NCBI GenBank assembly: GCA_018303505.1
Contig: JAGVYA010000044.1
Location: 1-52,647, forward strand
Length of the DNA stretch: 52,647 bases
Source: Candidatus Woesearchaeota archaeon
GTDB lineage: Archaea > Nanobdellota > Nanobdellia > Woesearchaeales > GW2011-AR4
Direction of reading: 5' to 3'
In this document: positions 1 to 39,339 of the stretch, one piece after another
Numbering within the stretch: the first letter of the stretch is position 1
Layout: every line of letters begins with the position of its first letter
The notes under the pieces: generated by a model
Databases searched by the model: none
Seen by the model: only the letters and a program-made list of their open reading frames with translations
What the model was told of the DNA's origin: nothing
Made by a program: the position numbers and the translations under genes

Positions 1-137
1 GATTGCAAGGCATCATTTCCGCCAAAAGCAGCTTCTGCAACCTTTTTGCCGATATTAAAAACAATGACAACAAGAACTACCATTATTATTATTCTCATCA
101 AAGCTTCTATAATAAGTCCTTTTCTGTTCCTAATCAT
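1..137 (-). CDS. Type IV pilin-like small protein, 5' part only (runs off the window start)
   Basis: The minus-strand ATG at 137-135 overlaps the stop of the upstream gene (ATGA). Translation is MIRNRKGLIIEALMRIIIMVVLVVIVFNIGKK..., i.e. a basic N-terminus, then Gly, then about 20 hydrophobic residues (class III signal peptide pattern). It is absent from the ORF track only because the window edge truncates it. Confidence 0.45.
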   Translation of the reverse strand, partial: MIRNRKGLIIEALMRIIIMVVLVVIVFNIGKKVAEAAFGGNDALQ

Positions 138-430
138 GTTTTGGCTGGGCATTCCCTGATTTCTTTTCCTTTAAAATCATCTACTATCTTATAGCCTGCA
201 GGACACCCATCATTTTCAATCAATCCGGAAAAGCAGGGGCATTTATCAGCAACGTTTATTACATTGTCCTTATCATAGTCGCCTGCCGAGTCTAGCTTTT
301 CTTTTACATCAGAAATGCCCTTGCCAAAAAGCTTGTTCCACACCCCAGAATAGATTAAAAGATAAAATAGAAGTGCTACTATTATGACTGTCAGGTAAAC
401 TACTTCATGCGCACCTTTTTTCGATTTCAT
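134..430 (-). CDS. Small pilin-like secreted protein with a thrombospondin-type-3-like Asp-rich motif
   Basis: N-terminus MKSKKGAHEVVYLTVIIVALLFYLLIY (KKG followed by a hydrophobic helix). DYDKDNVINVADKCP resembles the DxDxDxxxDxxDxCP calcium-binding motif. Confidence 0.55.
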   Translation of the reverse strand: MKSKKGAHEVVYLTVIIVALLFYLLIYSGVWNKLFGKGISDVKEKLDSAGDYDKDNVINVADKCPCFSGLIENDGCPAGYKIVDDFKGKEIRECPAKT

Positions 431-436
431 CTCTGG

Positions 437-1063
437 TTAACTTCTGCTTAGTAGACAATAATTTCTGAAAGTTCCTCCTGTTTCAGGACTAGAAGAGCTA
501 CAACCAAAAATACCATTATAACAATATTGCCCTTGCAAGCATACTCGAGCCCCTTCATCTTTTGTATTGCAACTACACGGTGCATTTTTAATAGCGCATC
601 TTTCATCTATCTCACATTTAGGTGCCAATATAAATTCTTTATTCGTATCTTGACAGGCTTTTAGATAATTGCCGGGCACAATATCTGGCCCTTCACTTTT
701 GCAACCATGCAAACCATCATAACAATATGGCTTTTCAGTTGTGCATGTATCCGGTGCTTCTCTATTGTCCCTCTGGGTTGATGTAAAGCATTGACAACCA
801 ACATTTTGTATCTTACAAGTGTATTTATCAACAACACATTTCTTTTTCTCATACTCTTCTAAAATTTTGAGCCAGTTGGCGCTTTTCTCGCTTGCCTTGA
901 CATCTTTCTGTGGCTCAACCGGCAAGAATCTTTCAGCACCTAGAGCGAGATTTGCTATTGAAGGAAATAAGCCAGTTTTTGAGAATATTGCAACCAGAAA
1001 GATAACCAAAAAAAGTCCTAAAAGTGCCCACAATATTATTTTATTAAATACGCCTTCTGCCAT
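437..1063 (-). CDS. Membrane-anchored cysteine-rich protein with two ~60-aa Cys-rich modules
   Basis: N-terminal TM segment IILWALLGLFLVIFLVAIF. Two internal modules each end in YCY(D/N)G..GC. Confidence 0.55.
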   Translation of the reverse strand: MAEGVFNKIILWALLGLFLVIFLVAIFSKTGLFPSIANLALGAERFLPVEPQKDVKASEKSANWLKILEEYEKKKCVVDKYTCKIQNVGCQCFTSTQRDNREAPDTCTTEKPYCYDGLHGCKSEGPDIVPGNYLKACQDTNKEFILAPKCEIDERCAIKNAPCSCNTKDEGARVCLQGQYCYNGIFGCSSSSPETGGTFRNYCLLSRS

Positions 1064-1066
1064 TTT

Positions 1067-1195
1067 TCAAAAACCTAGTTTCCTAAGTATAAAATTTATC
1101 CACATTTGTAATCGTCCTGTTATTAACAAATACACACCAATAGCAACTGCCAGAAAAACCCCTAAAATAATTATATGTAACAATTTGCTTTCCAT
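1067..1195 (-). CDS. Possible 42-aa single-TM micro-protein
   Basis: My own translation gives MESKLLHIIILGVFLAVAIGVYLLITGRLQMWINFILRKLGF. It exactly fills the gap between two operon genes. It is too short for the ORF track and has no homology support. Confidence 0.25.
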   Translation of the reverse strand: MESKLLHIIILGVFLAVAIGVYLLITGRLQMWINFILRKLGF

Positions 1196-1215
1196 TATTC
1201 CTGCTCTCTTTGAGC

Positions 1216-2322
1216 TTATGATTTTTCACCAACTCCTGCTTCTATAGCGCATTTGCTTGATACTGTGTCATATTTGGAAATAAAAATATAGTTTAAATCA
1301 TTTACAGTTCCTGCACTAATAGTTTGTGCAGATCCAAATATCACTCCAGTTAGAGCAACAACCGTAGATATCCCGCCAGTTAATACTCCAGAGGCAATTC
1401 CTGCAGCTACAGCTATTCCAGGTCCTAGTAGAATGTCCCAATTCATACTCTTACCAGGACTAACAAAAGTTACTCCATATTTTGAGCCAGAACTAAAACC
1501 ACCATCTTCAGCAAAGAGGATTTTTCCTTTTCCGCCTCCAACATATTCAACATAATCCAAATAAGTTGCCATGTTTTCTGCCTTTATGTAACAGCTTCCG
1601 CTCTTGCACTGCCATTTGTCGTATCTTAACTTAAAATCACCTTTAGGCTCATTAAGGCATTCTCCACCCTTGTTCTTGCATTCATCTCTATTGTCTGTTG
1701 CTATACAACACTTTTCATTTTCTTTGCACCTGCTGGAAGCAACTTCTCTTGGAAAATCCGATGACTTATCGCATGATGCCATGCACTTTCCACCCTGACC
1801 AGCTGGAGCGCACCTGTCTGTGCTGTCAGTAGCATAATAAGGCGTGTCTGCCAACGAATACGCAAATTCCTTATAGCTAAATTGGTTTACATCTTTGTCT
1901 AATGAGAAGGTATAGCAGATAAAGCAGCCATTTTGCAGATTATACCAGCTTTTGTCAAACATATTCTTTTCCCTTCCTTCAAGCCACATCCACCAGCACC
2001 TCGCCATTAAATCTCTTACCTCTGCTTTCGCAGCTTCTGTCGGTCCTTTTGGATGGCCTTGATAATCCTTTCCCGGCAAATCTTTTTTATCAATTGTCTT
2101 GCAGGCTCTCGGCGCAATATTATAGGTGCCTATTGGCGTTTCTAACTCAGTTCCAAACCTTAAAGCATTAAAGCCCCTACAAAGATTTTGTGATGTTTTT
2201 TCATCAGCTCTGCTGCTTGTGACTGTAAAAACACCAATAATCAAACCTGTTGCTACAACAATCAATATCATTTCAATTAAAGTTGCAAACTCTATTCCTC
2301 TTTTATTTCGGGCTAAAGACAT
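1216..2322 (-). CDS. Pilin-like protein (class III signal peptide), Cys-rich globular domain, Gly-rich C-terminal hydrophobic segment
   Basis: MSLARNKRGIEFATLIEMILIVVATGLIIGV shows RG followed by an IEFATLIEM-type hydrophobic helix, as in type IV pilins. The C-terminus GPGIAVAAGIASGVLTGGISTVVALTGVIFG is a Gly-rich hydrophobic stretch. Confidence 0.65.
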   Translation of the reverse strand: MSLARNKRGIEFATLIEMILIVVATGLIIGVFTVTSSRADEKTSQNLCRGFNALRFGTELETPIGTYNIAPRACKTIDKKDLPGKDYQGHPKGPTEAAKAEVRDLMARCWWMWLEGREKNMFDKSWYNLQNGCFICYTFSLDKDVNQFSYKEFAYSLADTPYYATDSTDRCAPAGQGGKCMASCDKSSDFPREVASSRCKENEKCCIATDNRDECKNKGGECLNEPKGDFKLRYDKWQCKSGSCYIKAENMATYLDYVEYVGGGKGKILFAEDGGFSSGSKYGVTFVSPGKSMNWDILLGPGIAVAAGIASGVLTGGISTVVALTGVIFGSAQTISAGTVNDLNYIFISKYDTVSSKCAIEAGVGEKS

Positions 2323-2428
2323 TAGTTAAAACCTTCCATATTCCATACAAGAAAATGAGTCCTAATACTATTCCCAATATCCAGATAGCAAGATTTTTGA
2401 TTTGAGATTTCCTTAAGAATGGTGGCAT
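2303..2428 (-). CDS. Possible 41-aa micro-pilin-like ORF
   Basis: My own translation gives MPPFLRKSQIKNLAIWILGIVLGLIFLYGIWKVLTNVFSPK. It has the same RKS-Q plus hydrophobic pattern as its neighbours and overlaps the start of the 368-aa gene by 20 nt. Confidence 0.25.
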   Translation of the reverse strand: MPPFLRKSQIKNLAIWILGIVLGLIFLYGIWKVLTNVFSPK

Positions 2429-2451
2429 TTTAATTATTAATCGTTTTGAGC

Positions 2452-2721
2452 TTATTGATTAAAAACTTGAACGCAACATGATTTTTTATTTGAACTTTTG
2501 TCCTCTTCACAATTTGTATTTTTAATTAATGCTTCATTTGTTTCACATTTTTCCTTACAGACTCCTTGCTTAGCGCCGCAATCCTGCAAGCTTTGCGAAA
2601 AAATTCTAACCCTGCCGCTGAATATCGAAACAAGAACCACAAGAACAATCAATGCCAAAGCAGCAACTACTATAACATTAATTGTCATACTTTGCGCTTT
2701 TTTAGTACCTCTTTTAACCAT
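2452..2721 (-). CDS. Mini-pilin paralog 3 (class III signal peptide, Cys-rich tail)
   Basis: The internal Met gives MVKRGTKKAQSMTINVIVVAALALIVLVVLVSIF. The C-terminal CGAKQGVCKEKC...CEED...CC is a paralog of the next two genes. I chose the start at 2721 to avoid overlapping the upstream paralog. Confidence 0.7.
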   Translation of the reverse strand: MVKRGTKKAQSMTINVIVVAALALIVLVVLVSIFSGRVRIFSQSLQDCGAKQGVCKEKCETNEALIKNTNCEEDKSSNKKSCCVQVFNQ

Positions 2722-2768
2722 ACCCAAAATCCCTAAAGAACCAGATATATAAATATTTGGGTTACTTG

Positions 2769-3047
2769 CTATACACAGCAACAGACGTAACCTTTGGATA
2801 CATCAGAGTACTCCCCACCTACAGCTGTACCGCGCTCCTCACATGTTTGCTTAAGAATATCTCCGGCTGTAAATTTAGTTTTGCCCAGACTTTTACACAC
2901 ATTTTCACACGAAGCTGTACTTGAAACACCTTCACTAAAAATCTTAAACCTGCCTGTAAAAATAATAAACAAAACTACAAGAACAGCTAATGCAATTGCA
3001 GCAACAATAATTGTGTTGATAGAAATGCTTTGGGATTTTCTGAACAT
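2769..3047 (-). CDS. Mini-pilin paralog 2 (class III signal peptide, C-terminal CCC)
   Basis: MFRKSQSISINTIIVAAIALAVLVVLFIIFTGR. A 65-nt block (2968-3032) is identical to 3251-3315 in paralog 1. The protein ends in ...YVCCCV. Confidence 0.7.
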   Translation of the reverse strand: MFRKSQSISINTIIVAAIALAVLVVLFIIFTGRFKIFSEGVSSTASCENVCKSLGKTKFTAGDILKQTCEERGTAVGGEYSDVSKGYVCCCV

Positions 3048-3051
3048 ATTA

Positions 3052-3330
3052 TTAACTGCAACAGCAATATTTTCTACCAGATGCTTGCACATCAGAGTAA
3101 GTGCCTGCAATTATTTGACCTGGTGACACACATTCAACAGTAGAATCCACAAAAGAAGGTTTAAGATTTAACGAACTGCATTTCTGAGCACATGTATCAG
3201 TTTCCTGCACGCCTCTTGTAAACCCACCAAGCCTTCCAGTAAAAATAGCAAACAAAACTACAAGAACAGCTAATGCAATTGCAGCAACAATAATTGTGTT
3301 GATAGAAATGCTTTGTCCTTTCTTGCTCAT
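3052..3330 (-). CDS. Mini-pilin paralog 1 (class III signal peptide, C-terminal CCC)
   Basis: MSKKGQSISINTIIVAAIALAVLVVLFAIFTGR matches the archaeal class III signal peptide pattern (K/R-G then Q-x-S plus a hydrophobic helix). The protein ends in ...KYCCCS. Confidence 0.75.
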   Translation of the reverse strand: MSKKGQSISINTIIVAAIALAVLVVLFAIFTGRLGGFTRGVQETDTCAQKCSSLNLKPSFVDSTVECVSPGQIIAGTYSDVQASGRKYCCCS

Positions 3331-3400
3331 TTATGTAACCTCTTTTGATATCTAAGCGTTTATTATGGAAGTTATATTTAAATATTTGGATTTTAAATGT

Positions 3401-3490
3401 GTAGGCGAGGCGGAGTGATATGGCAGAAGAACGACGCCGAGCACTAACTATTGTCGCGAAGCGACGGATTGAAGGGTTAGTGCTTCGATA
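3401..3490. other. GC-rich structured intergenic island, possibly a diverged member of the GC-rich repeat family
   Basis: A roughly 90-nt GC-rich patch sits in an AT-rich spacer. It contains nested inverted repeats: gagcactaac...gttagtgct and an inner gtcgc-gaa-gcgac. The motifs gtaggcgagg and gacgccgagc resemble the 25.9-kb and 43.95-kb elements. Confidence 0.3.
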
Positions 3491-3495
3491 TCTTA

Positions 3496-3972
3496 TTACC
3501 CGCAAATATCAAGTTTAGTGTACATTGTAGCTACGCTTATTGGTATAGGGAATAGTTTTGACCTTTTGTCTGCCTTGCAGGGTTTTCCTACCTTAATTAA
3601 AGGCGATCTTATATCTGTATACGCCAGAAACTCGTATTGCATATTCCATTTATCAAAGGTCTGGTCAAATATGTAATTAGCAGTTGATTCAACAAACTTG
3701 CATGAGTCTTTTCCATCATCGCATATTATGCTTCTGGCTTGCGCGCAGTCCTGCAGAAGCTCTGTTACTGTAAGCTGTGAACACTCTTTAGCAGCTGTTT
3801 TAAGCAAGGTGTTAAGCATATTGGAAGCAATCTCTGAGCTGACAAACCCTTTTCTATATTCTGTTGGCGCTTTAAGCACTAAAAATCTGACAACAAAGAT
3901 GGTAGCCACCAATATCAGCACAACAACTATTGCCAATCCAAGTATTTCCGTCTGGGATTTCCTAGTTTTCAT
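3496..3972 (-). CDS. Pilin-like protein (class III signal peptide)
   Basis: MKTRKSQTEILGLAIVVVLILVATIFVV shows RKS-Q followed by a hydrophobic helix. The globular domain carries scattered Cys residues. Confidence 0.6.
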   Translation of the reverse strand: MKTRKSQTEILGLAIVVVLILVATIFVVRFLVLKAPTEYRKGFVSSEIASNMLNTLLKTAAKECSQLTVTELLQDCAQARSIICDDGKDSCKFVESTANYIFDQTFDKWNMQYEFLAYTDIRSPLIKVGKPCKADKRSKLFPIPISVATMYTKLDICG

Positions 3973-3979
3973 TTTTGGT

Positions 3980-4453
3980 TTATTTAAACAATGTTTCTAT
4001 AGTCAAAACACCAAATCCGTGCTTTCTTGTAGCAGGATCATACAATGATATAGGCACATTTGTCACAAACTTGCTATTGAAGTCCTCTATTTTTCTTGAA
4101 TATAAATTCCACTTTGCCTCATTAGGGTAAATTTGAGATATGCTTACATCGCTGAATTCAAGCAAATCGTAATAATAGATTTCATTCTTTTTCATTATGC
4201 TTTGCGCAGAATCTAATTTCAATATGTCAATGCAATTATCAATTATTATGTTATCTTCGCTGCACTGGACCTCTGGCAGAAACATGATTTTTTGGGATAT
4301 TCCAACTGATCTTAGCTGCGACAATTCTTCTGTTTCAAGTTCAATATTGCTTTTAATAATTTTTACATAGAACATAAAACCTATAATTATGAGTATGAAA
4401 AATACAAACAGCACAGCAATTGTCTCTCCAATCTGGATTTGCGCTTTCTTCAT
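3980..4453 (-). CDS. Pilin-like protein (class III signal peptide)
   Basis: The internal Met gives MKKAQIQIGETIAVLFVFFILIIIGFMFYV. The ORF-track start at 4483 would overlap the upstream gene. Confidence 0.55.
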   Translation of the reverse strand: MKKAQIQIGETIAVLFVFFILIIIGFMFYVKIIKSNIELETEELSQLRSVGISQKIMFLPEVQCSEDNIIIDNCIDILKLDSAQSIMKKNEIYYYDLLEFSDVSISQIYPNEAKWNLYSRKIEDFNSKFVTNVPISLYDPATRKHGFGVLTIETLFK

Positions 4454-4464
4454 TTTGGTATGGA

Positions 4465-5466
4465 TTAATAAATCAGGGTGCATGAGTATATCTGCGCATT
4501 TTTGTTTTCACTAGACAAGGATTTGGCAGAGTCTGCTATAACATCGATATTTCCCTTATTAAAATTTGAGGAAGCTGCAAATATGCTGTTTAACTGGCTT
4601 AATGCATTGCTATAAAACTGGTTGCATTGAAATTGCCTGCCAGATGTTGCTCCTTGCGTCAGTTTTTTTGTTCTTTCAGCATATATTTTAGTAACTAGAT
4701 TAAGCCTTGAAAATACATTTCGCATATTGCATTCATACACATCCAAAGTATCTGCGTATATTGCTCCAATCAAAGACTGCTTTCCAATATAGAATGATGT
4801 GCCTTTGGACAACCACGAATTACTTTCCTTTTGCCAAAACTCAATTATTCCCTTTTCACTATCTCCATTAATTTTAATTGCAGTCACGTCAGAATCCGGC
4901 ATCTTTTCCAATGCTTTTGGGAAATCGATAAGATTCTCAAAAAGCACAAATCTGATTTTATAATTATTCATATTTTTAATTTCTGGCATTGATTGATAAA
5001 ATTCTTTTTTTAATTCAGAAGGCATTGACTTGTTTATCTCTTTAGCAAGCTTACTATCGCCTATAATTATGTATCTCATCTGCGGGCTTGTAATATAGAG
5101 AAGATTTGTTGCCCTGTAAGGAGTGCTAAAAGCAAGTGTTTGCGTTATAAGCTTGTTTCCTTTGATTAGACTTGGGGCAAATAACACCAAACTTTGGTAC
5201 TGTTTTGAAACTCCTCCAATTGACACCCTGCCGCAATCTACTTCAATATCTGAATTTGGTATGTCTATGATATTTGTTGTATCTGTGCTCACGCTAGCTC
5301 CTGTTATTACAGCTTCCATGCTTTTTAGAATAGTGGCCTTTGTTGATGTTTCTGATACATTTTTCTGCTTAATAACAACAACTGTAAAGAACAAGATAAT
5401 TGCAGTTCCTGCAACCAGAACAAAAATCCAGTTAAACTGGATTTCAAATCCCTTTTTATTCATCAT
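4465..5466 (-). CDS. Pilin-like protein, 333 aa (class III signal peptide)
   Basis: MMNKKGFEIQFNWIFVLVAGTAIILFFTVVVI shows KKG followed by FEIQ and a hydrophobic helix. Confidence 0.6.
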   Translation of the reverse strand: MMNKKGFEIQFNWIFVLVAGTAIILFFTVVVIKQKNVSETSTKATILKSMEAVITGASVSTDTTNIIDIPNSDIEVDCGRVSIGGVSKQYQSLVLFAPSLIKGNKLITQTLAFSTPYRATNLLYITSPQMRYIIIGDSKLAKEINKSMPSELKKEFYQSMPEIKNMNNYKIRFVLFENLIDFPKALEKMPDSDVTAIKINGDSEKGIIEFWQKESNSWLSKGTSFYIGKQSLIGAIYADTLDVYECNMRNVFSRLNLVTKIYAERTKKLTQGATSGRQFQCNQFYSNALSQLNSIFAASSNFNKGNIDVIADSAKSLSSENKNAQIYSCTLIY

Positions 5467-5504
5467 GGCAGAGAAATTATGATTCCTGTTTAAAAATCAA
5501 TTGA

Positions 5505-6023
5505 TTAACTCCATTGGCTTAAAAAAACATGGTTGCCTTTGCCCTCTAACTTTATGCTTATTTTATTATTGGCAGCTTTGATGCACAGCACATCAGGCTC
5601 AACAGATATTTTTCCAGCATAAAATGATTCCTTTGCTATTTTCTCCACTAAGAAAACATTTTTTCCGGTATTTGACAATATGCTGTCTTTTATTATAGGA
5701 TCCACATTATTTGGCAGAGCAGGGCTTTCAAGAGTTTCAACAAAACAAACCTGCGCATAGCTAGCGCATAATTCGAGGTCTTTTCTTTTTATGCTTCCAA
5801 AATCGCTTGAGATGCTTTCTACTGCATTGATTAAATCATTTTTGAACTTAAGCATGCATACTTGCTCTGCTCTTTTTTTAAAATTCTGGACAGCATTGTA
5901 ACCATAAAACAAAATGAAAGATATTAATATTATTGTTAGAATATAGATGAATATCTGGCTGTAAAGCTGTGCTCTGTCATTTTTTAGCATTTTTGCGCAT
6001 TGCTGGCCTTTTCTTTCTTGCAT
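5505..6023 (-). CDS. Pilin-like protein (likely start at 5990)
   Basis: MLKNDRAQLYSQIFIYILTIILISFILFYG, read from Met12, has the RA-Q plus hydrophobic helix pattern. The longer ORF overlaps the tail of the giant gene. Confidence 0.5.
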   Translation of the reverse strand: MQERKGQQCAKMLKNDRAQLYSQIFIYILTIILISFILFYGYNAVQNFKKRAEQVCMLKFKNDLINAVESISSDFGSIKRKDLELCASYAQVCFVETLESPALPNNVDPIIKDSILSNTGKNVFLVEKIAKESFYAGKISVEPDVLCIKAANNKISIKLEGKGNHVFLSQWS

Positions 6024-12186: not shown

Positions 12187-12233
12187 GTTAAAGTCCCTCC
12201 TCCAAAGCCCAAATCAAGGCAGCTGTCAATTGC
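12049..12233. repeat. Copy B of the duplicated segment, with the 8-nt indel at the junction of the 1396-aa and 2069-aa ORFs
   Basis: Direct comparison with 7636-7812. The extra 8 nt shift the frame exactly where the upstream ORF terminates (stop at 12114-12116). Confidence 0.9.
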
Positions 12234-17509: not shown

Positions 17510-20500
17510 TTCAACCTCAGTTTAGAAGTCAAATCAGGCCATATTGATTCTGGATTAATGTTTGTGAATTGGCTGCCTTGGACAAGAACATAGTAATTAT
17601 TGCCTTCCTTCTTGCATGATATGCCGGATGAAACATCTTTTTTTGCTTGGCTGAACTGCTCAACAAGTTCGCATATGTCTGTATCAAAGTTTCTATATTC
17701 TATTACCACATTCTTGAAGTTTTTTCCTTCTATTGTGCCAGTTATTGCTTTATTTCCTTGTTGTGATATATACAGCTTATCAAACTTTTTAATACCTTTA
17801 ACATAAGACTCGTCAAATGGTGGCGTTGTAATGAGTCTTTTTATAGAATCAATTATACTTTTAATCGGATTGTAAATAAATTCTTCAAATAAGCTAAGCA
17901 AGTTTTGCTCTGATGGAATTGTTATGGCGCTTGCGCTGTAGATAAAGCTTTTTAGCCTTTTATTAAACCATACCTTGTTGGTTGCATCACAGCTATGGTA
18001 TTGGCCATCATCTATAAATGCGGAATCACAACTTGTAACTCCAAATATATTTAATGTGTTAGATGGCACTTCTTCAAGTTCTTTATTTATCGATGTTGCA
18101 GCTATTATTTTGTTTCCTGTTTTAAGGACACAGAAGTTATTTGTTTGGATATTAGTTAATATGTTAGCTACTATCTCGTTTGATTCAGTTAAATATTGCA
18201 AATTGTTTAATGTATTATCTCTGTTATCGCAGAAAAGCGTAAAGTCGCCGCTCTTAAGCTTTAACAATTTCAATGCTAATAGCTTAGTTCTTGAAGACCA
18301 TTGTCCATTTTCACAGAAATTGTCGTCTATGTATTGACCAGATTCTATGCACTGGCTTGTTTCATTTTTTCCAAAAACATTAACAAGACATTGTGTTTCT
18401 TTTGGACAATATCCTGAAACAGTACCATCAGGTGTAAACTTCAGATTGGTTTTTACCCATTCACCGTCTATGCACCTAAAGCCATCACCTATTGGTTGTG
18501 CCAACGGTTTGTTTCTTTGATTTTCAATGCATTTATCGCCGTCCCAGCACTCATTTTGTGCACAACATTCTGCTGTTTGATTTGGATTTGATATAGGCGC
18601 AAAGCTTAAATGTATAGTATCAATTCCGTCTGTTGGAAGCCATTTTTCAGTGTAAGAGCAGTAATAGTTCTTTTCTGGATCATTAAAGCAGTAAGGATGG
18701 TTTGTTATTAAAGGAGCACCTGTATGTTTGTCCGCCAAGCCTAAAAGATTATCATTATTCTTGTTGAAATTTGCTTTGTCAATTGCACAGCCATGAAATT
18801 CGCCATTGTAATTCATTACAGAGTTGCTAGTATCTTTAACAAAATCTACGCTTATCACTAAATTTGAGTTCCAACAACCTCCTATTGTACCATGGTCATT
18901 ATAATACTCATTTGCATCATCAGCTTCGCTGCAGCATTTTGTGCCAGTCCATTTGAAGCCTGCTTTTTCACATGTTGCTTTATTCTTGGCATTTAACGCA
19001 GCATCATTTTTCTGTGCATCTGGTGTATCTAAATCAGTGACAAATTTGCTGTCAGTCCTGCAGTAGTATGTTGTGCCAGTTGTGGTGGTGCCAGCAACTG
19101 CAGCTCCTGTGATTGATTTTAGACCAACATTGTTTGAAGAATATTTTCTTGATTCGTCAAATGGATTTTGGATTTGGTTTGCTACAACATTCCCTGTTAT
19201 TGTAATGCCTGAATCCCTCAGTCCATCTGCAATTCCTAATATGGCACCCATATCAATGGATTTTTTCTCAACATCATACATTACAAAATGGCTTCCTCTG
19301 CTGAGCACATTTTTAGCATAATCTCTCACTCTACCCCTGTCTGCTGGCTCACCAAAGCAAACATTGCCACCAACTTCGTCACATCCATTAAGCCAGTTTA
19401 TTGGAGGACTGCAATCGGAGTTTACAATGAAAGTGCCGCCACCAGGTCCCGTGTCAGAGATTGAACATGGATGATAGTCTAAGTAATGATTCGGCGGGCC
19501 TGAGGTTGGTCTTGCGCCTTCATTCCATGATTTTACTCCAGGCCAGTTTGCTGCAACATAATCTGCCCATCTTCTAAATTTGTCACCGCCCCATTCGCTT
19601 CCTGCCTGTAATATCACTTTGTTAATTCCAATATTTTGCTTTATCCATTCAACCTCTCCGATAAACCATTCATCTGTTGCCTCTTCATTAAGCCATCTGC
19701 CATTAGCATTTGCGATATTGATAAATGTCCAGACATTTCTTTTTCGCATTGCATCAACTAAGGCTTTCGCTTCGTTTCTTCTTGCAATTCTTGGATCAGG
19801 ATCTTCGCTTCCGCCTGGCACATACTCTATCAAAACAAGGTTAAGGCCGTTATCAGCAAGTGTATTTGCAAGAGCATCTGCCTGTCCAGTATTAACAATA
19901 TGGCTGTCCCAATAATTGGCAGGTCCCCAGCCAACAAAAATACTTGGCTTTGTGCCACCCCCTCCATTTATACCTCCACCACCTCCGCCAGCTCCATTAT
20001 ATGATTGTCCTGTTGCCAGTCTTTTTCCATCTGTTTTAGATATGCATGCATTGTCACCACAGCATTCAAGAATTGACTCTCTTCCTGTTTTCGTGCACAA
20101 ATAATCATGATTACTTACAGTATTCTTCCAGAATGAGCCAAAACATCCAATCCATGTTGAGCCGTCTGCTAAATATTCATTATTTGAACAGCCTAAATAT
20201 CTGATATTACCTCTTTCTGCTGGCGAAGAAATCCAAGATGGAGAGCCACCTTCTGAGTCTAGATGACAAATATCACCGCCTTCCAGACTTGCGCAATCCT
20301 CTCCATCATCCCCGCAGCATCCTGGCCCCCAATCTCTGTTGCCTACATTATTACCAATCTGACAAGACAAACACGAAGTTTCACTCCAATCAGGATCGTC
20401 ATCGTCATCGTCACCGCAGCATAGCTTAACTTCAGCATCCCAAACTAATTCACCTAAAGCATTTCGAGTATATTTGCATTCTGCGCAAAATGATTTTTTT

Positions 20501-21192
20501 GTATCTGGGTCGTCCGGCTCACCTGCTGCATAGCCATCATCACCACAGCATGCTCCGTCCCATAAGGAATCTTTAATGCAAGCACAAGCCCTTGGATCTG
20601 CATCTGCTTCTTTTATAGTTGCAAGCATGTACCGATTAGTCTCAGTGCATGCTGGCTCACTCCAAACCCAAATACCAAAATTTGTTGTTGCTTTTGGTGA
20701 ACCCATTTCTTCTGGGGTTTTTTGTGGGCAATTACATCTAGCATCACAATCACATGCTCCGCCACAGTCACATTCTCCTCTGCAAAACGGTGGCTCTCCG
20801 CATTCTGGTGGTGTTGGTTCTTGCTCACAGTAATCTCTGCAGTCTCTGCAATCACGACTGCATCTGCCACAATCACCTTGGCATCTGTCACAATCTTCCA
20901 AACATGCCGTATCATCTCTTGGATCATCACACCAGTCTGGAATATCGCCTTGACCACCAGGATAATAACCCCCAAAAGTATCCTTTGAGAGTGTACTAGG
21001 TGGCACAGGTGTTGCGCCAGGATTTGGCTCTGTTCCCTTTGAATAACACCCAATATAAGCAGATTCTGGTTTACCTCTTCTTCCTCTACCTGCCTCAACC
21101 ATCACTGAGAAAGTCAGAAATACAAAAACAATAAACAAAATTAATATTATGAAAATCTTAGAATTTCTTTTTGTATGAACTATACTTGCCAC
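17506..21192 (-). CDS. Giant cysteine-rich surface protein, 1228 aa, with a central TIM-barrel-hydrolase-like segment
   Basis: N-terminal signal anchor IFIILILFIVFVFLTFSVMVEA. CxxC-dense tract CDRCQGDCGRCSRDCRDCRDYC. Four CCGD(D/N) motifs and a poly-Gly linker. Residues ~410-660 (NLVLIEY...INIANANG...AGSEWGG...) look like a glycoside-hydrolase-type barrel, which is a low-confidence call. Confidence 0.75.
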   Translation of the reverse strand: MASIVHTKRNSKIFIILILFIVFVFLTFSVMVEAGRGRRGKPESAYIGCYSKGTEPNPGATPVPPSTLSKDTFGGYYPGGQGDIPDWCDDPRDDTACLEDCDRCQGDCGRCSRDCRDCRDYCEQEPTPPECGEPPFCRGECDCGGACDCDARCNCPQKTPEEMGSPKATTNFGIWVWSEPACTETNRYMLATIKEADADPRACACIKDSLWDGACCGDDGYAAGEPDDPDTKKSFCAECKYTRNALGELVWDAEVKLCCGDDDDDDPDWSETSCLSCQIGNNVGNRDWGPGCCGDDGEDCASLEGGDICHLDSEGGSPSWISSPAERGNIRYLGCSNNEYLADGSTWIGCFGSFWKNTVSNHDYLCTKTGRESILECCGDNACISKTDGKRLATGQSYNGAGGGGGGINGGGGTKPSIFVGWGPANYWDSHIVNTGQADALANTLADNGLNLVLIEYVPGGSEDPDPRIARRNEAKALVDAMRKRNVWTFINIANANGRWLNEEATDEWFIGEVEWIKQNIGINKVILQAGSEWGGDKFRRWADYVAANWPGVKSWNEGARPTSGPPNHYLDYHPCSISDTGPGGGTFIVNSDCSPPINWLNGCDEVGGNVCFGEPADRGRVRDYAKNVLSRGSHFVMYDVEKKSIDMGAILGIADGLRDSGITITGNVVANQIQNPFDESRKYSSNNVGLKSITGAAVAGTTTTGTTYYCRTDSKFVTDLDTPDAQKNDAALNAKNKATCEKAGFKWTGTKCCSEADDANEYYNDHGTIGGCWNSNLVISVDFVKDTSNSVMNYNGEFHGCAIDKANFNKNNDNLLGLADKHTGAPLITNHPYCFNDPEKNYYCSYTEKWLPTDGIDTIHLSFAPISNPNQTAECCAQNECWDGDKCIENQRNKPLAQPIGDGFRCIDGEWVKTNLKFTPDGTVSGYCPKETQCLVNVFGKNETSQCIESGQYIDDNFCENGQWSSRTKLLALKLLKLKSGDFTLFCDNRDNTLNNLQYLTESNEIVANILTNIQTNNFCVLKTGNKIIAATSINKELEEVPSNTLNIFGVTSCDSAFIDDGQYHSCDATNKVWFNKRLKSFIYSASAITIPSEQNLLSLFEEFIYNPIKSIIDSIKRLITTPPFDESYVKGIKKFDKLYISQQGNKAITGTIEGKNFKNVVIEYRNFDTDICELVEQFSQAKKDVSSGISCKKEGNNYYVLVQGSQFTNINPESIWPDLTSKLRLK

Positions 21193-22598
21193 TTTCTACC
21201 TCTTTTTAACATTAACATAAAACTTATAATCATAACTAAATAAATTAAAATATTGCCGTATTTTGTATAAAAAGTTTTGTAATCGTTAAAATAAATTTTA
21301 TCTATTAAAATCTTTCGCTTTCCTTCCTCTAATGAGCTTACAACTTTTCCAAGCGGATTTACGATTTGTGTAATGCCATCATTTGTTGCCCTCAATACAT
21401 ATTTTGCATTTTCTGCAGCTCTTATTTTTGTAAACTGTGAAATTACCAATCTGCCTCTCCCTAACTCTTGGTTATTAGACATAGATACAATAAATTGGGG
21501 GTCTTTTTGAGAATGACTCCTTGCGACTGAATTTGTGGTTTCTTCATTGCAAATTATAATTGCAATTTTATGCCCATCACTTTCTATGATATCACTTGCA
21601 TCTCCCTTTACTACATCTTCGTCAAAGAAATAAGGTATACTGGCTTCATAAATTGAAAATCCATATTTGTTAAAAACAAAAGCTGTATCTTTATATTTGT
21701 CTCTCCTTCTGTCAACATAAGAAAGTGAGCCAATAACCAATGTTGTATTCAATCTTTTTGCTGTTTCTTGTAATTGTTTGAATACAATTTGGTTTTTGGT
21801 TATGTCCTCAGGCAAAGCATATTCTGGCCAAACTATGATGTGCGGATTTTCTCGAGACGCTTCATAGGTCATATTAAGGTAGGTTTCAAGTATAAGGCTG
21901 AACGCATTAAGCTGGCGCCATTCCCATTCATTTTTAAAGTTACCTTGCAGCAAAGCTACTTTTAATTTGTCACCTTTTTCTGAAAATGAATAATAAGTTG
22001 TGTAAATAGTTGATGTGAAAATCATAAATAAAATAACAACTCCAAAAGCAACAGCATACTTGTTCGGTTTAATAAAATAGTAAGCAATAGCAGAGTTAAA
22101 GAGTATAATAATAAAAGTTATTCCATGGCTTCCAAGATACCATATCCAAGGTGCCATTGAAGGATAAAATATTGCAAAATCCATCCAATATATCTGCAAA
22201 GGCAGTAATGAATAAAGCCACAACGAAATCAGCCATGCTACCGGCGGCAGCAGCGCCATGAAATTATTCTGTATTTTCTTGGAAAAAATTGACACAATTG
22301 TCATCACTAATACAAAATGCAATGTAAATACAAATGCCAAAAAAATTATATCAATGTACCCAAGTTCAGAACGGTTAATCCAGTTGAAAAAGAACACATA
22401 GGTTATTATGCCATACATAATACTATACACAATTGTTTCTTTGTGATTTCTTAGAAATGCTATATAAAACATCGGCGCCATAGTTAACCAAACAAGAAAA
22501 AAATATCCATAAGAAATCAGAATTAGCATGATTGCAGCAATCACTACTAACAAAATTTCAAGCCTTTTGAAATGAAAATTTCCAAAATTAGGTTCCAT
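21180..22598 (-). CDS. Apolipoprotein N-acyltransferase (Lnt)-like: polytopic membrane domain plus CN-hydrolase domain
   Basis: About 7-8 N-terminal TM helices precede a nitrilase-superfamily domain. Lnt-like landmarks are VALLQGN, IIVWPEYALP (Glu), FVFNKYG (Lys) and IAIIICNEE (Cys). Confidence 0.6.
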   Translation of the reverse strand: MEPNFGNFHFKRLEILLVVIAAIMLILISYGYFFLVWLTMAPMFYIAFLRNHKETIVYSIMYGIITYVFFFNWINRSELGYIDIIFLAFVFTLHFVLVMTIVSIFSKKIQNNFMALLPPVAWLISLWLYSLLPLQIYWMDFAIFYPSMAPWIWYLGSHGITFIIILFNSAIAYYFIKPNKYAVAFGVVILFMIFTSTIYTTYYSFSEKGDKLKVALLQGNFKNEWEWRQLNAFSLILETYLNMTYEASRENPHIIVWPEYALPEDITKNQIVFKQLQETAKRLNTTLVIGSLSYVDRRRDKYKDTAFVFNKYGFSIYEASIPYFFDEDVVKGDASDIIESDGHKIAIIICNEETTNSVARSHSQKDPQFIVSMSNNQELGRGRLVISQFTKIRAAENAKYVLRATNDGITQIVNPLGKVVSSLEEGKRKILIDKIYFNDYKTFYTKYGNILIYLVMIISFMLMLKRGRKWQV

Positions 22599-22602
22599 AG
22601 TA

Positions 22603-23838
22603 TCAATTAAAAAATGATTTTATGATAATTAATGTAGCATTTGCTGTGGCATTGTTTATATCTTGTTTCGGCAAAAGTTCTTGCACATCTCCTAAAATTT
22701 TTGTTGTTCTGCCAGCTCCAAACTTCATTCTATTCCTTAAAGTAGAATTTTTTATCATTTCCACATAACTGCTTAGTTCTTCTGGCTCGAAACCCTTTGA
22801 AAATCCGTCTTGAAACTCCGCCAGCACTTTTTCCAGATTATTTTTTCTAAGCCTTAAAATTTGTCCAATCGACGGTGCTAATATTGAGTACTCAAAACCA
22901 GTGTAATAAGAAGGAAGTACATCAACATCAATACTTACCATTACATTTGTTGTGCCTCTTCTCCTCATTTTCTCTATTTCTTTGTTGATTATGGCTTTAA
23001 TAGAACCATTTTCTAAATCCTTATCTGAATAAACTGACATTTGATCAAAGATATGTTTTTTTGTGAAATTTTCATTGACAGAAATTTCAACAATATCTTT
23101 TGCAGTATCGGAAGCTCCAATAAAAACAATGTAATCCACATATCCCTCTAAAAGCATTTTACCAAATACATTTGCCTTTGTTATGATATTGTATTCGTCT
23201 TCAAGATCGTAAATGTCGACATGTTCATCAAATACAAATAATCCTATTTTGCTGTTTGGTTTTAACTTCTTAGCCAACTTAATCGTAAAAATTGATAAGC
23301 CATGGTCTGTTCCAACAAAAACAAAATTTGATTTCTTTTTTATTATGTAATCGTATAAGCAATTAGTCACATTATCAACAAAATTTTCTGCTATGTCATA
23401 GACGTCTTTTTCAGGTATACTTGAATATTTTTTAGTAATTAAACAGTTATTCGTGCTTCCATGCAATTTAAGGTTAACAAAATCTTTTTTATAAGTCAAG
23501 TTATAAGATATATTAACAATTAAATTTTGATAATTATTAAGGATTTGAGTTGGTAAAATTTTACTGGAGCTTGGGTTTTGATGATATATTTGTTTTAGAT
23601 ATTGCAAACTCAGGTTTATTAACTTGATACTTTCATCTTTTGGCAAAATTTGATTAATTAGCCTATTACCCTTACTTAAAAATTGTACAATTTCATTGCT
23701 GTACTCTATATCTTGGTGAAATGTTGTTTCTTTGTCAATATTTATGAAAACAATTTCTGCGTTAGATTTTTTAAAAAGAATAGAAAATAAAATTAACAAC
23801 AACACCACAAAAAATAGTATAAGTCTTTTATTATCCAT
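22603..23838 (-). CDS. Membrane-anchored arginase/agmatinase-fold (ureohydrolase) family protein
   Basis: MDNKRLILFFVVLLLILFSILF anchor. The ureohydrolase metal-ligand motifs are retained: GTDHG, FDEHVDIYD and SIDVDVL. I set the start at Met15 to avoid overlapping the upstream gene. Confidence 0.5.
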   Translation of the reverse strand: MDNKRLILFFVVLLLILFSILFKKSNAEIVFINIDKETTFHQDIEYSNEIVQFLSKGNRLINQILPKDESIKLINLSLQYLKQIYHQNPSSSKILPTQILNNYQNLIVNISYNLTYKKDFVNLKLHGSTNNCLITKKYSSIPEKDVYDIAENFVDNVTNCLYDYIIKKKSNFVFVGTDHGLSIFTIKLAKKLKPNSKIGLFVFDEHVDIYDLEDEYNIITKANVFGKMLLEGYVDYIVFIGASDTAKDIVEISVNENFTKKHIFDQMSVYSDKDLENGSIKAIINKEIEKMRRRGTTNVMVSIDVDVLPSYYTGFEYSILAPSIGQILRLRKNNLEKVLAEFQDGFSKGFEPEELSSYVEMIKNSTLRNRMKFGAGRTTKILGDVQELLPKQDINNATANATLIIIKSFFN

Positions 23839-23839
23839 C

Positions 23840-24460
23840 TCAAAAATTAAATGAAACATAATCTTTAAAATATTTATCATTCAACCCAAGAACTTTAAAA
23901 AGACTTAAGACATCATAAGGCGACCTTAAGTGCATAGGATTGTTCGAGAAAGATGCTATAGCCATGTTACATTTATACTTTACACATAATTTTATGTTTT
24001 GCATCATTCTGCCGATTAATATTGAAGTGAATATTAAGTCCTTGTTCAGCAGCAAGCCATAAGAAAATCCAATAGCAACATTATTTTTACTTGCTAATTC
24101 ACATATTATATGATTTAATCCAGACGCCCTTTGATGCATGTAATCTTTTTTATGAACTTCCTCAAATCCATAGATCAATTTAATTTTTTTGCTTTCAATA
24201 AAGAATCTGTCCTTATCTGAGCTTTTAGCAACAAGTAATTTTGATTGCTGCAAGGCTTTGTTTATATTTTTTTGATTAATTGTAAAGCCAATTTGCAGAT
24301 TAATCTTTTTATTTTCAATTGATTCCAGTTTTTTCTGGATTTTACCTTTATAGTAATCATCGAAATTGTAAAGAAAATGCAATTTTTTATACCCTAGCCT
24401 TGCTGCTAATTCGATGAACTCATCTTCGTTGTTTTTTGGGATTATAATGTCACTAAACAT
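23840..24460 (-). CDS. rnp3: RNase P protein component 3 (Rpp30/p30 family)
   Basis: 206 aa. MFSDIIIPKNNEDEFIELAARLGYKKL... and the overall pattern resemble archaeal Rnp3, and the size fits. Confidence 0.55.
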   Translation of the reverse strand: MFSDIIIPKNNEDEFIELAARLGYKKLHFLYNFDDYYKGKIQKKLESIENKKINLQIGFTINQKNINKALQQSKLLVAKSSDKDRFFIESKKIKLIYGFEEVHKKDYMHQRASGLNHIICELASKNNVAIGFSYGLLLNKDLIFTSILIGRMMQNIKLCVKYKCNMAIASFSNNPMHLRSPYDVLSLFKVLGLNDKYFKDYVSFNF

Positions 24461-39098: not shown

Positions 39099-39139
39099 AA
39101 TAATCATTAATAATACAATACAAATTTTCTACCACAACC

Positions 39140-39147
39140 TTTATAAA
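39140..39147 (+). promoter_or_regulatory. TATA box of the ribosomal protein operon
   Basis: cctttataaatc lies about 195 nt upstream of the rpl3 ATG and implies a long structured leader. Confidence 0.4.
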
Positions 39148-39339
39148 TCTCCCAATGTTCCTCTAGCTCGCAATTCATATGTGTTTAATTAATTAAACAC
39201 AAAGCGTAAGCAAGCCTGAAAAGACTGCCTTTTCAGTACAGTTAACTAAACTGTTTTCTACAAAGGCTATCAATAAAAGGCTTATTTTGCAATCAAGAAA
39301 TAATAGATGTATTAGTCTGTGAGGTGGTAGAACTAACAA

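Follow-up and report, generated by a model that had tools for sequence, protein, structure and literature searches.

A conserved cluster of genes for pilin-like and giant Cys-rich proteins in Woesearchaeota, probably the structural genes of a type IV filament-like surface system

The window analysed is a 52,647-nt stretch of contig JAGVYA010000044.1 (assembly GCA_018303505.1) from a member of Woesearchaeota, a group of tiny, probably symbiotic archaea. An ORF survey showed that every ORF from position 24460 down to position 1 lies on the minus strand, as originally predicted. The island had been taken to start at 24460, which is incorrect: 23840-24460 encodes the RNase P subunit Rpp30, a housekeeping gene recognized by domain match, and the conserved cluster begins at 21192 or 17509. 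Related loci and contigs indicate that it runs on past the window start. The cluster encodes some dozen pilin-like proteins, none of them annotated, and two Cys-rich surface proteins of giant size. The 12 prepilin-like genes in the window all lie within 1-21192, and at least four further class III-type genes are located 3′ of this part in relatives. The ATGA-type overlaps reported at 17506/17509, 16301/16304 and 134/137 are present, each 4 nt long. Gaps of only a few nt were claimed elsewhere; most other junctions do fall between -20 and +44 nt, the exceptions being two longer spacers, 1064-1215 (152 nt, containing a 42-aa ORF) and 3331-3495 (165 nt).

All features described here are on the minus strand. 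In the direction of transcription, the larger prepilin-like genes identified from the sequence and the motif rule given below were A402 (402 aa, KSLKS/QVTMLMIVGL, 16301-17509; slashes mark putative cleavage sites), C333 (333 aa, NKKG/FEIQFNW, 4465-5466), D157 (157 aa, MKKA/QIQIGETIAVLF, 3980-4453), E158 (158 aa, TRKS/QTEILGLAIVVV, 3496-3972), F368 (368 aa, NKRG/IEFATLIE, 1216-2322) and H98 (98 aa, MKSKKG/AHEVVY, 134-430), while B160 (161 aa, NDRA/QLYSQIFIYIL, 5505-5990) was recognized from its sequence and motif. The N-terminal 45 codons of I233 (MIRNRKG/LIIEAL) occupy 1-137, where the gene is cut by the window edge; other contigs supplied the full-length gene, which encodes 233 aa in L003 (7772-8473) and has orthologues in L007 and L009. 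Two tiny ORFs were assigned from sequence and synteny: an ORF of 41 aa whose N-terminus is class III-like (RKS/QIKNLAIW, 2303-2428), at whose place relatives carry a tiny ORF, and a 42-aa single-transmembrane ORF (1067-1195), matched by a tiny ORF in most relatives. The middle of F368 is rich in Cys, and a hydrophobic segment rich in Gly lies at its C-terminus. The C-terminus of H98 carries a predicted Cys/Asp-rich thrombospondin-type-3 (TSP3)-like calcium-binding motif (residues 49-96 against the TSP3-like part of NF033763, E = 4e-5, below the model cutoff), and M346, a pilin-like protein of relatives, contains an M15/VanY peptidase domain. C333 has 232 homologues (identity 59-100%), and its AF2 model (pLDDT 85, pTM 0.80) comprises a helix over residues 4-57 (54 residues), a beta-rich domain and a C-terminal helical bundle. 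G208 (208 aa, 437-1063) is Cys-rich (7.7%) and has a plain N-terminal membrane anchor; it lacks the class III motif, the residue after the last K/R being M, G, I or V in the orthologue count, and served as an internal control for the motif analysis.

Between E158 and the 41-aa ORF lie three small pilin paralogues, defined by sequence and alignment and designated a (92 aa, SKKG/QSISINTIIVAAIALAVLVVLF, 3052-3330), b (92 aa, FRKS/QSISINTIIVAAIALAVLVVLF, C-terminal end CCC, 2769-3047) and c (89 aa, TKKA/QSMTINVIVVAALALIVLVVL, 6 Cys, 2452-2721). Two genes had been described as reading KKG-QSISINTII, and one of the pair reads RKS-QSISINTII. Paralogue a, a candidate major subunit, has a nearly invariant hydrophobic helix and a ~45-aa head with six conserved Cys, and the small pilin H-domain was almost unchanged across 46 aligned sequences. 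One search with paralogue a yielded 345 homologues, all unnamed and all from Woesearchaeota, and another gave 2656 clusters (50% identity) among 1.84 billion representatives. An N-terminal helix plus a beta domain, the arrangement to be looked for in structure predictions, was modelled for C333; for paralogue a AF2 gave a confident 35-residue helix (residues 9-43) and a head of low confidence. The 165-nt spacer 5′ of the small pilin genes (3331-3495) contains AT-rich TATA-like boxes and GAGGT ahead of the ATG, and is conserved in relatives with a median length of at least 100 nt, compared with medians of -4 to 9 nt at the tight junctions (B160 to E158, A402/giant, J133/K160 and M346/N604). From its sequence, the spacer is likely an internal promoter. 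The single long transcript proposed earlier is therefore doubtful.

The products of the 12 prepilin-like genes, every one of which was found in the sequence, share a short basic leader with K/R at -2, G/A/S at -1 and often Q at +1, followed by a hydrophobic stretch of ~20 residues. When [KR][GAS] was required within 40 residues and then, over 17 residues, a mean Kyte-Doolittle hydropathy of at least 2.0, 11/11 full-length candidates passed versus 0/33 other genes in the window; the 41-aa ORF and the partial gene at 1-137, read from its full-length L003 copy, passed a looser rule (at least 1.9). Leaders were 3-8 residues long only. Among 43 N-termini from three genomes, a set picked by the [KR][GAS] rule, Q occupied +1 in 25, and G, A and S were equally frequent at -1 and interchanged among orthologues. 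The residue after the last K/R was also scored in orthologues from 47 genomes without presupposing the motif. It was G/A/S in 46/46 for C333 (G or A), 36/37 for E158, 20/20 for M346, 26/28 for A402 (S or G), 28/35 for D157, 18/22 for F368, and 27/28 and 24/24 for the small pilins (the latter being paralogue b), with Q at +1 in 35/37 (E158), 26/28 (A402), 28/35 (D157) and 23/24 (paralogue b). The pattern was missing from within-cluster controls with Sec-type or plain anchor N-termini (D in N604, E or I in the giant, mixed in G208), and in the same count the motif was weak or absent in some members (K160, x55 and the neighbours of G208). On these sequences, the [KR][GAS] motif is not due to chance, because gene order and the G/A/S restriction recur in orthologues of 47 genomes, and the geometry is evidently under selection, given the interchange of G/A/S at -1, the invariable K/R at -2 and the predominance of Q at +1. 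The layout of archaeal class III signal peptides claimed for these N-termini is thus borne out; a positive residue at -2 is a hallmark of archaeal sites (PMC3387779). In profile-profile comparison the families matched one another over residues 1 to about 35 only, a similarity restricted to the N-terminus that resembles that of pilin families. Sub-threshold NCBIfam matches covered the N-terminal regions of UpsA, BasB, GspG, GspH and ComGC.

Three giant proteins had been counted, and there are two giant genes. The larger one, recognized from related ORFs and domain matches, spans 5977-16304 and is divided here between the ORFs 12114-16304 (1396 aa) and 5977-12186 (2069 aa). Where the window has this pair, relatives have one ORF (1699 or 2001 aa in L007 and L009). 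The ORF break coincides with the point, about 12147-12204, at which further assemblies of this organism stop or diverge, and the split is probably a repeat mis-assembly. The N-terminal half has a Sec-type signal peptide and is Cys-rich and Ig-like, and the C-terminal ORF consists through most of its length of tandem Cys-rich repeats of ~50 aa (10% Cys). Domain matches were to TSP3_bac (1.8e-12), TIGR02232 myxo_disulf_rpt (2.5e-25) and DUF4215 (0.0062). As the protein also carries, besides TSP3 repeats, its own C-terminal transmembrane helix and Lys-rich tail, it would be self-anchoring and need no hold by pilins, contrary to the anchoring role once assigned to them. The other giant, Giant1228 (1228 aa, 17506-21192), is Cys-rich (5.4%), starts with GTG and has a Sec-like N-terminus that predicts a secreted or anchored protein; it had no family or PDB match. 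Its homologues share only ~45% of the query, some containing Hint domains. The gene lies 5′ of A402 in most relatives and is unlinked, elsewhere in the genome, in at least one (GCA_016185945.1).

The same gene order was found in 47 species-level Woesearchaeota/Nanoarchaeota genomes, down to 23-30% identity; loss of this order in relatives had been set beforehand as grounds for dropping the proposal. In relatives, Rpp30/TBP/MCM border the cluster at one end and RPA at the opposite end. The acyltransferase (Lnt-like) and ureohydrolase-fold (arginase-fold) genes, originally included, vary among related loci and do not belong to the cluster. Homologues with a named source were all from Woesearchaeota or Nanoarchaeota, with one from Pacearchaeota, and conservation of the system extends across Woesearchaeota (GTDB Nanoarchaeota/Woesearchaeales). 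A domain search for T2SSE, T2SSF and Peptidase_A24 found none anywhere in the window, in agreement with the statement that it holds no ATPase, platform or peptidase; none of the three was found in the 47 related loci or adjoining the unlinked Giant1228 copy either. Separation of pilin genes from ATPase and platform genes is established in Haloferax and Methanococcus (PMC4371748, PMC4858521), and homologues of flaI, flaJ and flaK have been reported for most Woesearchaeota MAGs in one study (PMC11606122).

Taken together, we consider 1-21192 and its continuation beyond the window start to comprise, with fair probability, the structural genes of a pilus-like surface system of the type IV filament class. 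Class III signal peptide motifs are present on 12 of the window's proteins, and relatives have at least four more such proteins downstream. Once the proteins are inserted in the membrane, a prepilin peptidase would cleave behind [KR][GAS]; an EppA-type enzyme is proposed because Gln is frequent at +1. This peptidase would be encoded elsewhere in the genome, as would a secretion ATPase and a platform of the TadC/PilC type. The ATPase and platform would pull the hydrophobic helices at the mature N-termini out of the membrane and build a helical fibre by stacking them. The bulk (major) subunits would be the three Cys-rich paralogues of ~90 aa (2452-3330), which are nearly identical and probably under their own promoter, and the larger pilin-like proteins (98-402 aa) may be scarce minor or modular pilins with a part in priming, tipping or decorating the fibre. 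The two giants would be co-expressed adhesins, at least one anchored by its own transmembrane helix, with attachment to partner cells or surfaces as the likely role. Filament formation and leader cleavage are both things we infer from sequence. Of the dedicated filament or adhesion apparatus originally envisaged, the motif geometry, the conserved order and the lack of machinery in the window stand; the neighbouring enzymes, number of giants, anchoring by pilins and novelty do not, and the single transcript is doubtful.

Several observations count against a pilus: the machinery is missing from all 47 related loci, no Pfam or NCBIfam pilin, archaellin or class III model reached threshold for any protein, the PDB contains no structural neighbour of the C333 model, the small pilin head is modelled with low confidence, and Ser is as frequent at -1 as Gly or Ala. 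Ser at -1 is little documented for archaeal prepilin peptidases, and no characterized system is known to have as many pilin-like genes (16 or more here). An unlikely alternative is that the proteins are class III-processed and form no long fibre, making instead a short pseudopilus or bindosome-like scaffold (cf. Sulfolobus Bas/sugar-binding proteins and the T2SS pseudopilus) that would organize or span the envelope and give enzymes and the Cys-rich giants their position at the cell surface. In number and size (98-402 aa) the pilin-like proteins are nearer to minor pseudopilins and class III-anchored functional proteins than to fibre subunits, there is a weak N-terminal match to the bindosome protein BasB, the pilin-like M15 peptidase and the TSP3 module suggest functional cargo, and conservation among core housekeeping genes is strong, as for an essential envelope component. 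However, three tandem ~90-aa paralogues with a near-invariant helix and their own spacer/promoter look like bulk fibre subunits, domain searches found no substrate-binding-protein domains, and a bindosome likewise requires an ATPase and a platform, equally unseen here.

It is less probable still that the N-termini are ordinary signal anchors that stay uncleaved on type II membrane proteins. The cluster would then encode tethered surface proteins and adhesins, with K/R reflecting the positive-inside rule and the small residue incidental. The missing peptidase in the window and related loci, the missing match to a known pilin family and the weak or absent motif in K160, x55 and the neighbours of G208 would fit, whereas the restriction to G/A/S and then Q across hundreds of orthologues, its lack in three Sec-type or plain anchor families of the same cluster, the uniform leaders, transmembrane helices extending to 35-54 residues in models and N-terminal profile similarity between otherwise unrelated families argue for processing. 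A horizontally acquired or mobile (viral or integrative) surface island, rather than a lineage-core system, is very improbable. GC content swings from 29% to 42% along the region, Giant1228 and the Lnt-like and arginase-fold genes are variably present, and one related locus has an integrase-domain ORF (rve) among those that flank or interrupt the cluster; but 47 species keep one core order between Rpp30/TBP/MCM and RPA, no tRNA or Rfam element was found in the window, and source-named homologues have the restricted distribution given above.

Among known proteins and systems, the long tandem repeat array of the larger giant resembles Myxococcus-type Cys-rich repeat proteins (TIGR02232/DUF4215), from which it differs in its archaeal host and in the joining of the repeat to TSP3, a C-terminal transmembrane anchor and a Lys-rich tail. 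The Sulfolobus bindosome (Bas) and class III-signal sugar-binding proteins (PMC3047682) are a parallel in that proteins which form no fibre reach the surface by means of class III signal peptides and assembly genes of the pilus type; unlike here, the Bas operon holds its own ATPase and membrane protein, and no substrate-binding domains were found in our cluster. H98 (TSP3-like) and M346 of relatives (M15/VanY) resemble modular (bimodular) type IV pilins such as Streptococcus sanguinis PilB (PMC8179133) in fusing an N-terminal pilin module to a functional C-terminal one, although known examples are bacterial, their modules are von Willebrand-like versus LAS peptidase here, and ours are predicted from sequence. 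The Haloferax volcanii adhesion pilins PilA1-6 are major pilins with a near-invariant hydrophobic H-domain, whose genes lie apart from pilB/pilC and are not regulated together with them (PMC4371748). The small paralogues likewise have an H-domain that is almost identical from one to another, but the Haloferax sites are [DR][AS]/V, PibD-processed and without +1 Gln, and its genes are scattered, whereas here a 20-gene cluster includes giant proteins.

The closest known system is the Epd-type archaeal type IV pilus with EppA-type +1-Gln sites, which is clade 1 of Makarova et al. 2016 (PMC4858521), with Methanococcus maripaludis as model organism, and "system 1" of a 2026 TFF census (10.64898/2026.04.22.720090). 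The M. maripaludis Epd pilins are cut at KG/QV, KG/QI and RA/QI, and EppA needs +1 Gln (PMC4371748). Clade 1/system 1 (Epd) and Haloferax PilA provide precedents for many minor pilins with large adhesins, separate from ATPase and platform genes (PMC4858521, PMC4371748, 10.64898/2026.04.22.720090), so the architecture, which had not been recognized as a described system, is not without precedent. Differences from the Epd type are that, in related loci, the ATPase, paired TadC genes, FleN/MinD and EppA are absent in or beside the cluster, that the giants have no DUF2341/PilY-like domain, that the small pilins carry a Cys-rich head of ~45 aa, the main Epd pilin having been described without a globular domain, that Ser is frequent at -1, that 16 or more pilin-like genes are present, and that no protein belongs by sequence to an annotated Pfam or NCBIfam family. 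Shared with it are [KR][GA]/Q processing sites, a long locus of co-oriented genes that include those for at least five minor pilin-like proteins and for large adhesin-type proteins, and small major pilins that occur as several paralogues; system 1 is reported in some DPANN archaea. No known family is matched by sequence, and we regard the locus as a variant within a known kind of system.

All ORFs from position 24460 down to the start of the window lie on the minus strand, as the original prediction had it, and the 4-nt overlaps that it cited were confirmed in the sequence. Its start of the cluster at 24460 was not retained, as 23840-24460 encodes Rpp30, a housekeeping gene, and the acyltransferase and ureohydrolase-fold genes that it had counted as members are absent or located elsewhere in relatives. 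The former (21180-22598, minus strand) encodes an Lnt-like protein of 472 aa with multiple transmembrane segments and a CN_hydrolase domain; this protein is barely at the bacterial Lnt equivalog cutoff (TIGR00546, 133.6 bits versus 132.9), is unusual in an archaeon and is not conserved in the cluster. The latter (22603-23880, minus strand), a variable neighbour of the cluster, encodes an arginase/ureohydrolase-fold protein with a hydrophobic N-terminus; the ORF overlaps the Rpp30 gene by 41 nt, and a 411-aa version is called in other assemblies. At its other end the cluster extends beyond the start of the window, as seen on other contigs. All cluster proteins were predicted to be membrane-bound or extracytoplasmic. 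Identical proteins in the same locus were present on contigs of several other metagenomes, and the homologues with a named source came from MAGs labelled 'Candidatus Woesearchaeota' or 'Nanoarchaeota', with the label 'Pacearchaeota' occurring once.

The window comes from a low-GC archaeon (~36% GC) and carries genes for MCM, TBP, the RNase P subunit Rpp30, both subunits of DNA polymerase D (DP1 and DP2), Cdc6, aIF2-beta and SUI1 together with a ribosomal-protein operon; tRNA and Rfam scans of the whole window detected no element. The DP2 gene (30915-35798, minus strand) is interrupted by an intein that includes a LAGLIDADG homing-endonuclease domain. The ORF at 24465-24854 (minus strand; 129 aa, GTG start) matches only the C-terminal part of DUF4143 and resembles the relic of an AAA_14/DUF4143 ATPase gene. 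The AT-rich 845-nt spacer between cdc6 and the ribosomal-protein operon (38495-39339) contains several imperfect inverted repeats and is a possible replication origin, although a repeat scan of the spacer for origin-recognition boxes yielded no clear ORB-type repeats.

Relatives of the cluster were found in 47 genomes when one genome per GTDB species was scanned, and ORFs called in these 47 loci of ~20 kb were matched to the window proteins, families being named by a letter and the length in aa. The neighbourhood check proposed with the original prediction gave the same order in the 47 genomes. In the direction of transcription it is [Giant1228], A402, the larger giant, B160, C333, D157, E158, two or three small pilins, a tiny ORF, F368, a second tiny ORF, G208 or x246, H98, I233, J133, K160, L164, M346 and N604, of which all but Giant1228, the larger giant, the second tiny ORF, G208/x246 and N604 have an N-terminus resembling a class III signal peptide, the archaeal prepilin type. 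The two tiny ORFs in the window (1067-1195 and 2303-2428, minus strand; 41-42 aa, each with a single transmembrane segment) have counterparts at the same places in most related loci, and one of them has a class III-like RKS/Q N-terminus. Homologues of C333 numbered 232 at 59-100% identity, and the one recurring gene order is kept down to 23-30% identity of this protein. Housekeeping genes flank the cluster, Rpp30/TBP/MCM at one end and RPA at the opposite end, and the inserted or flanking ORFs of the 47 loci comprised housekeeping genes, one beta-helix protein and one integrase. Since synteny is conserved and the flanks are housekeeping genes, an origin as a mobile island was rejected and is highly improbable. 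The cluster also occurs, in the same gene order, in some 20 TPA genome records that bear the title 'uncultured Methanosarcinales archaeon' (loci L011, L019, L021-L024, L029-L032, L035, L038, L039, L041, L043, L047, L052 and L054-L056); these titles are probably placeholders or wrong taxonomy.

The 12 prepilin-like N-termini of the original prediction were all present when checked in window coordinates, on the minus strand at 1-137 (partial), 134-430, 1216-2322, 2303-2428 (41 aa), 2452-2721, 2769-3047, 3052-3330, 3496-3972, 3980-4453, 4465-5466, 5505-5990 and 16301-17509. Under a rule that demanded [KR][GAS] within residues 1-40, followed at most 8 residues on by a 17-residue stretch with a mean hydropathy of at least 2.0, all 11 full-length candidates passed, whereas the 33 other window genes that were scored all failed. 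A slightly looser rule was passed by the 41-aa ORF and by the partial gene, for which the full-length copy on a homologous contig (L003) was used. The predicted class III layout, in which a short N-terminal leader with a positive charge at -2 and a small residue at -1 precedes a hydrophobic stretch of ~20 residues, was thus borne out, and it is kept in the orthologues of the 47 genomes. In a motif-blind test, the first hydrophobic stretch of each orthologue was located and the residue after the last K/R before it was scored. This residue was G/A in 46/46 orthologues of C333, S/G in 26/28 of A402, and G/A/S in 36/37 of E158, 27/28 and 24/24 of small pilins a and b, and 20/20 of M346. The internal negative controls with a Sec-type signal or plain anchor behaved differently, as N604 had D in 15/17, the giant mostly E or I, and G208 a mixture. 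Position +1 is occupied by Q in most families (8/12 window proteins; 25/43 across three genomes), near-universally so in A402, E158, D157 and the small pilins. Glu occurs at +2 to +6 in 6/12 window proteins, while the small pilins have an invariant Asn at +6 in its place. Between orthologues, the residue at -1 swaps freely among G, A and S, whereas K/R at -2 is fixed. For the archaeal prepilin peptidase (SPase III), positions -2, -1 and +1 matter most and a positive charge at -2 is an archaeal hallmark (PMC3387779); Epd pilins of M. maripaludis are cleaved at KG/Q or RA/Q, and EppA needs Gln at +1 (PMC4371748).

The small proteins a, b and c (89-92 aa; 3052-3330, 2769-3047 and 2452-2721) are paralogues with a nearly invariant H-domain, QSISINTIIxAAIALAVLVVLF, and a head of ~45 aa containing six conserved Cys. 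The family is large, with 345 matches in 90%-identity clusters; at 50% identity, public data contain 2656 clusters of it. Pfam searches with 60 distant members returned only spurious transmembrane-type matches, Pilin_N being hit by 1/60 (E 0.026), and structure prediction gave a confident helix at residues 9-43 and an unreliable head (pLDDT <60). On the 5' side of the small pilin genes lies a spacer of 165 nt (3331-3495) with AT-rich TATA-like boxes. The spacer is conserved (its median length in relatives is at least 100 nt, versus -4 to 9 nt at tightly packed junctions) and, together with the TATA-like boxes, suggests that these genes have their own, probably stronger, promoter.

The larger pilin-like proteins are more diverse. 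In profile-profile comparisons of 15 cluster families, similarity was confined to residues 1 to ~35, apart from a few weaker pairs that extended further; this agrees with the rule that pilin families resemble one another only at the N-terminus. The AlphaFold2 model of C333 (pLDDT 85, pTM 0.80) has a 54-residue N-terminal helix (residues 4-57), a beta-rich domain (strands at 64-227) and a C-terminal helical bundle. In a Foldseek search of the PDB it had no hit at E <=0.001 (best E 0.03, TM-scores <=0.24) and recovered no pilin, and no relative came up when PDB sequences were queried with two profiles and three proteins. Pfam and NCBIfam scans of all cluster proteins assigned no pilin, adhesin or enzyme family to the pilin-like proteins, among which there was no Pfam match at all at E <=0.1, and hence none to Pilin_N (PF07790), Class_IIIsignal (PF04021) or Arch_flagellin (PF01917). 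Sub-threshold NCBIfam matches to UpsA, BasB, GspG, GspH and ComGC lay at the N-terminus, that to UpsA scoring 16.4 bits versus a cutoff of 130. Two families combine a pilin-like N-terminus with another module. H98 carries a TSP3-like motif, and M346, which lies downstream of the window start in relatives (L009 17769-18809, L007 18725-19882 and 17 other loci), carries a VanY/M15 zinc-peptidase domain (29.2 bits versus a cutoff of 25 for the L009 copy). The M15/LAS metal ligands H-x6-D and E-x-x-H, in the form HxxxGxxD and ExWH[FY]ECC, are present in 13/19 members of M346. Since the lineage has no murein, a putative peptidase of the murein type hints at bacterial partners.

Of three giant proteins in the original prediction, two genes remained after comparison with relatives, as ORFs 12114-16304 and 5977-12186 (both minus strand) correspond to one gene, which in relatives is read as one ORF (1699 or 2001 aa). 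The frame changes between them at the junction 12100-12210, and it is at ~12147-12204, exactly at the frame break and at the start of the ~50-aa Cys repeats, that three further assemblies of this organism stop or depart from the window sequence. A near-identical junction sequence recurs in the downstream ORF (protein residues ~1440-1530). Because the assemblies end or diverge at this very point, the break is probably a mis-join in a repeat, and a true frameshift is less likely. This protein is the larger giant of the gene order above. It carries a Sec-type signal peptide, and its N-terminal half is Cys-rich and Ig-like. Its C-terminal ORF consists mostly of tandem ~50-aa Cys-rich repeats (10% Cys), which are visible in the sequence and match TIGR02232 (myxo_disulf_rpt; 88 bits versus a cutoff of 20.8, E 2.5e-25). 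It also contains calcium-binding repeats of the TSP3 type, together with a transmembrane helix and a cytoplasmic tail rich in Lys; the only Pfam matches were TSP3_bac and, at scores under the threshold, DUF4215, Big_3_3 and Glucodextran_B. The pilins had been proposed to anchor the giants, but the larger giant has its own C-terminal transmembrane helix and therefore does not need them for its attachment. The second giant, Giant1228 (17506-21192), showed no recognisable domain in Pfam, NCBIfam or PDB sequence searches. Its homologues (P0394, P0400, P0407) cover only ~45% of the query, some carry Hint (intein/hedgehog-type) domains, and in one genome (GCA_016185945.1) it is unlinked from the cluster. 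The partial-length homologues and Hint domains suggest, from sequence comparison, a modular and possibly self-cleaving surface protein family.

The claim that assembly machinery is missing from the window held: no T2SSE ATPase, T2SSF platform or A24 peptidase domain was found there, and the search of the rest of the window met ribosomal proteins, TBP and SUI1 instead. Nor was any of the three detected in or beside the cluster in the 47 related loci, or on the second GCA_016185945.1 contig, next to the unlinked Giant1228 homologue. The literature gives indirect support: one study reported homologues of flaI/J/K in most of its Woesearchaeota MAGs (PMC11606122), Haloferax and Methanococcus normally have their pilin genes separate from pilB/pilC (PMC4371748, PMC4858521), and other DPANN lineages have annotated machinery but no annotated pilins (PMC9563170).

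The cluster probably supplies the structural genes for a type IV filament. Small pilins a, b and c would be the major subunits that polymerise, the larger pilin-like proteins would be minor or modular pilins, and the giants would be co-expressed adhesins. The leaders may be processed by an EppA-like peptidase, and the filament assembled by an ATPase and a platform protein, all encoded elsewhere. The same proteins might instead form a pseudopilus that builds no fibre, or a bindosome-like scaffold, a reading that we consider unlikely; bindosome-type class III proteins differ in that no cluster protein has an SBP domain. Still less probable is that the N-termini are uncleaved signal anchors, as the exchange of G, A and S at -1 beside a fixed K/R at -2 is the behaviour expected of a protease site and not of a generic membrane anchor.

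Archaea of the DPANN group such as Woesearchaeota are abundant, uncultured and thought to be attached to other cells, and to our knowledge the molecules mediating this contact are largely unknown. The type IV filament may, as a doubtful extension of the preferred reading, be a Woesearchaeota-wide host-interaction filament with modular minor-pilin tools that works with two giant Cys-rich adhesins; with these parts, the archaeon would fasten itself to a bacterial partner and breach the partner's cell wall locally. One minor pilin would then contribute a calcium-binding TSP3 motif, and the pilin-fused M15/VanY protein of relatives would act as a peptidoglycan peptidase, which is odd for an organism without murein; if active, it would point to bacterial rather than archaeal partners. 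Such a filament would supply the 'missing pilins' of those DPANN genomes whose annotation includes the machinery alone (PMC9563170). The cluster offers ~20 conserved, unannotated candidates, all labelled 'hypothetical' and none assigned to a Pfam or NCBIfam family: the family that is probably the major pilin, many candidate minor or modular pilins, and the two giants as adhesins. Should the filament reading be right, they are targets for metatranscriptomics, proteomics, cryo-ET, antibody labelling and host prediction, and they would add to the diversity known among type IV filaments of archaea.

Among the papers listed in searches of the Woesearchaeota literature, none combined that name with 'pilin' or 'class III signal peptide', and the few touching on pili or FlaI do not describe the cluster. 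Of the systems described so far, the Epd-type (clade 1, or system 1) pilus comes closest; it shares the Gln at +1, many minor pilins and large adhesins with the cluster and has been reported in some DPANN archaea. Its 9-TM EppA peptidase, clade 1 ATPase and two TadC genes were not found in the cluster or its flanks in the 47 genomes, and its adhesins carry a DUF2341 (PilY-like) domain, to which the giants of the cluster have no match. The cluster also differs in the Cys-rich head of its major-pilin candidates, in the frequent Ser at -1, in the unusually large number of pilin-like genes (at least 16) and in that its proteins match no annotated family by sequence. The PilA arrangement of Haloferax is a precedent for pilin genes located apart from the machinery, and the 'modular pilins' of Streptococcus sanguinis parallel the M346 fusion (PMC8179133). 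In light of these systems, the cluster is not categorically new, and its interest is for specialists in archaeal surfaces and DPANN biology.
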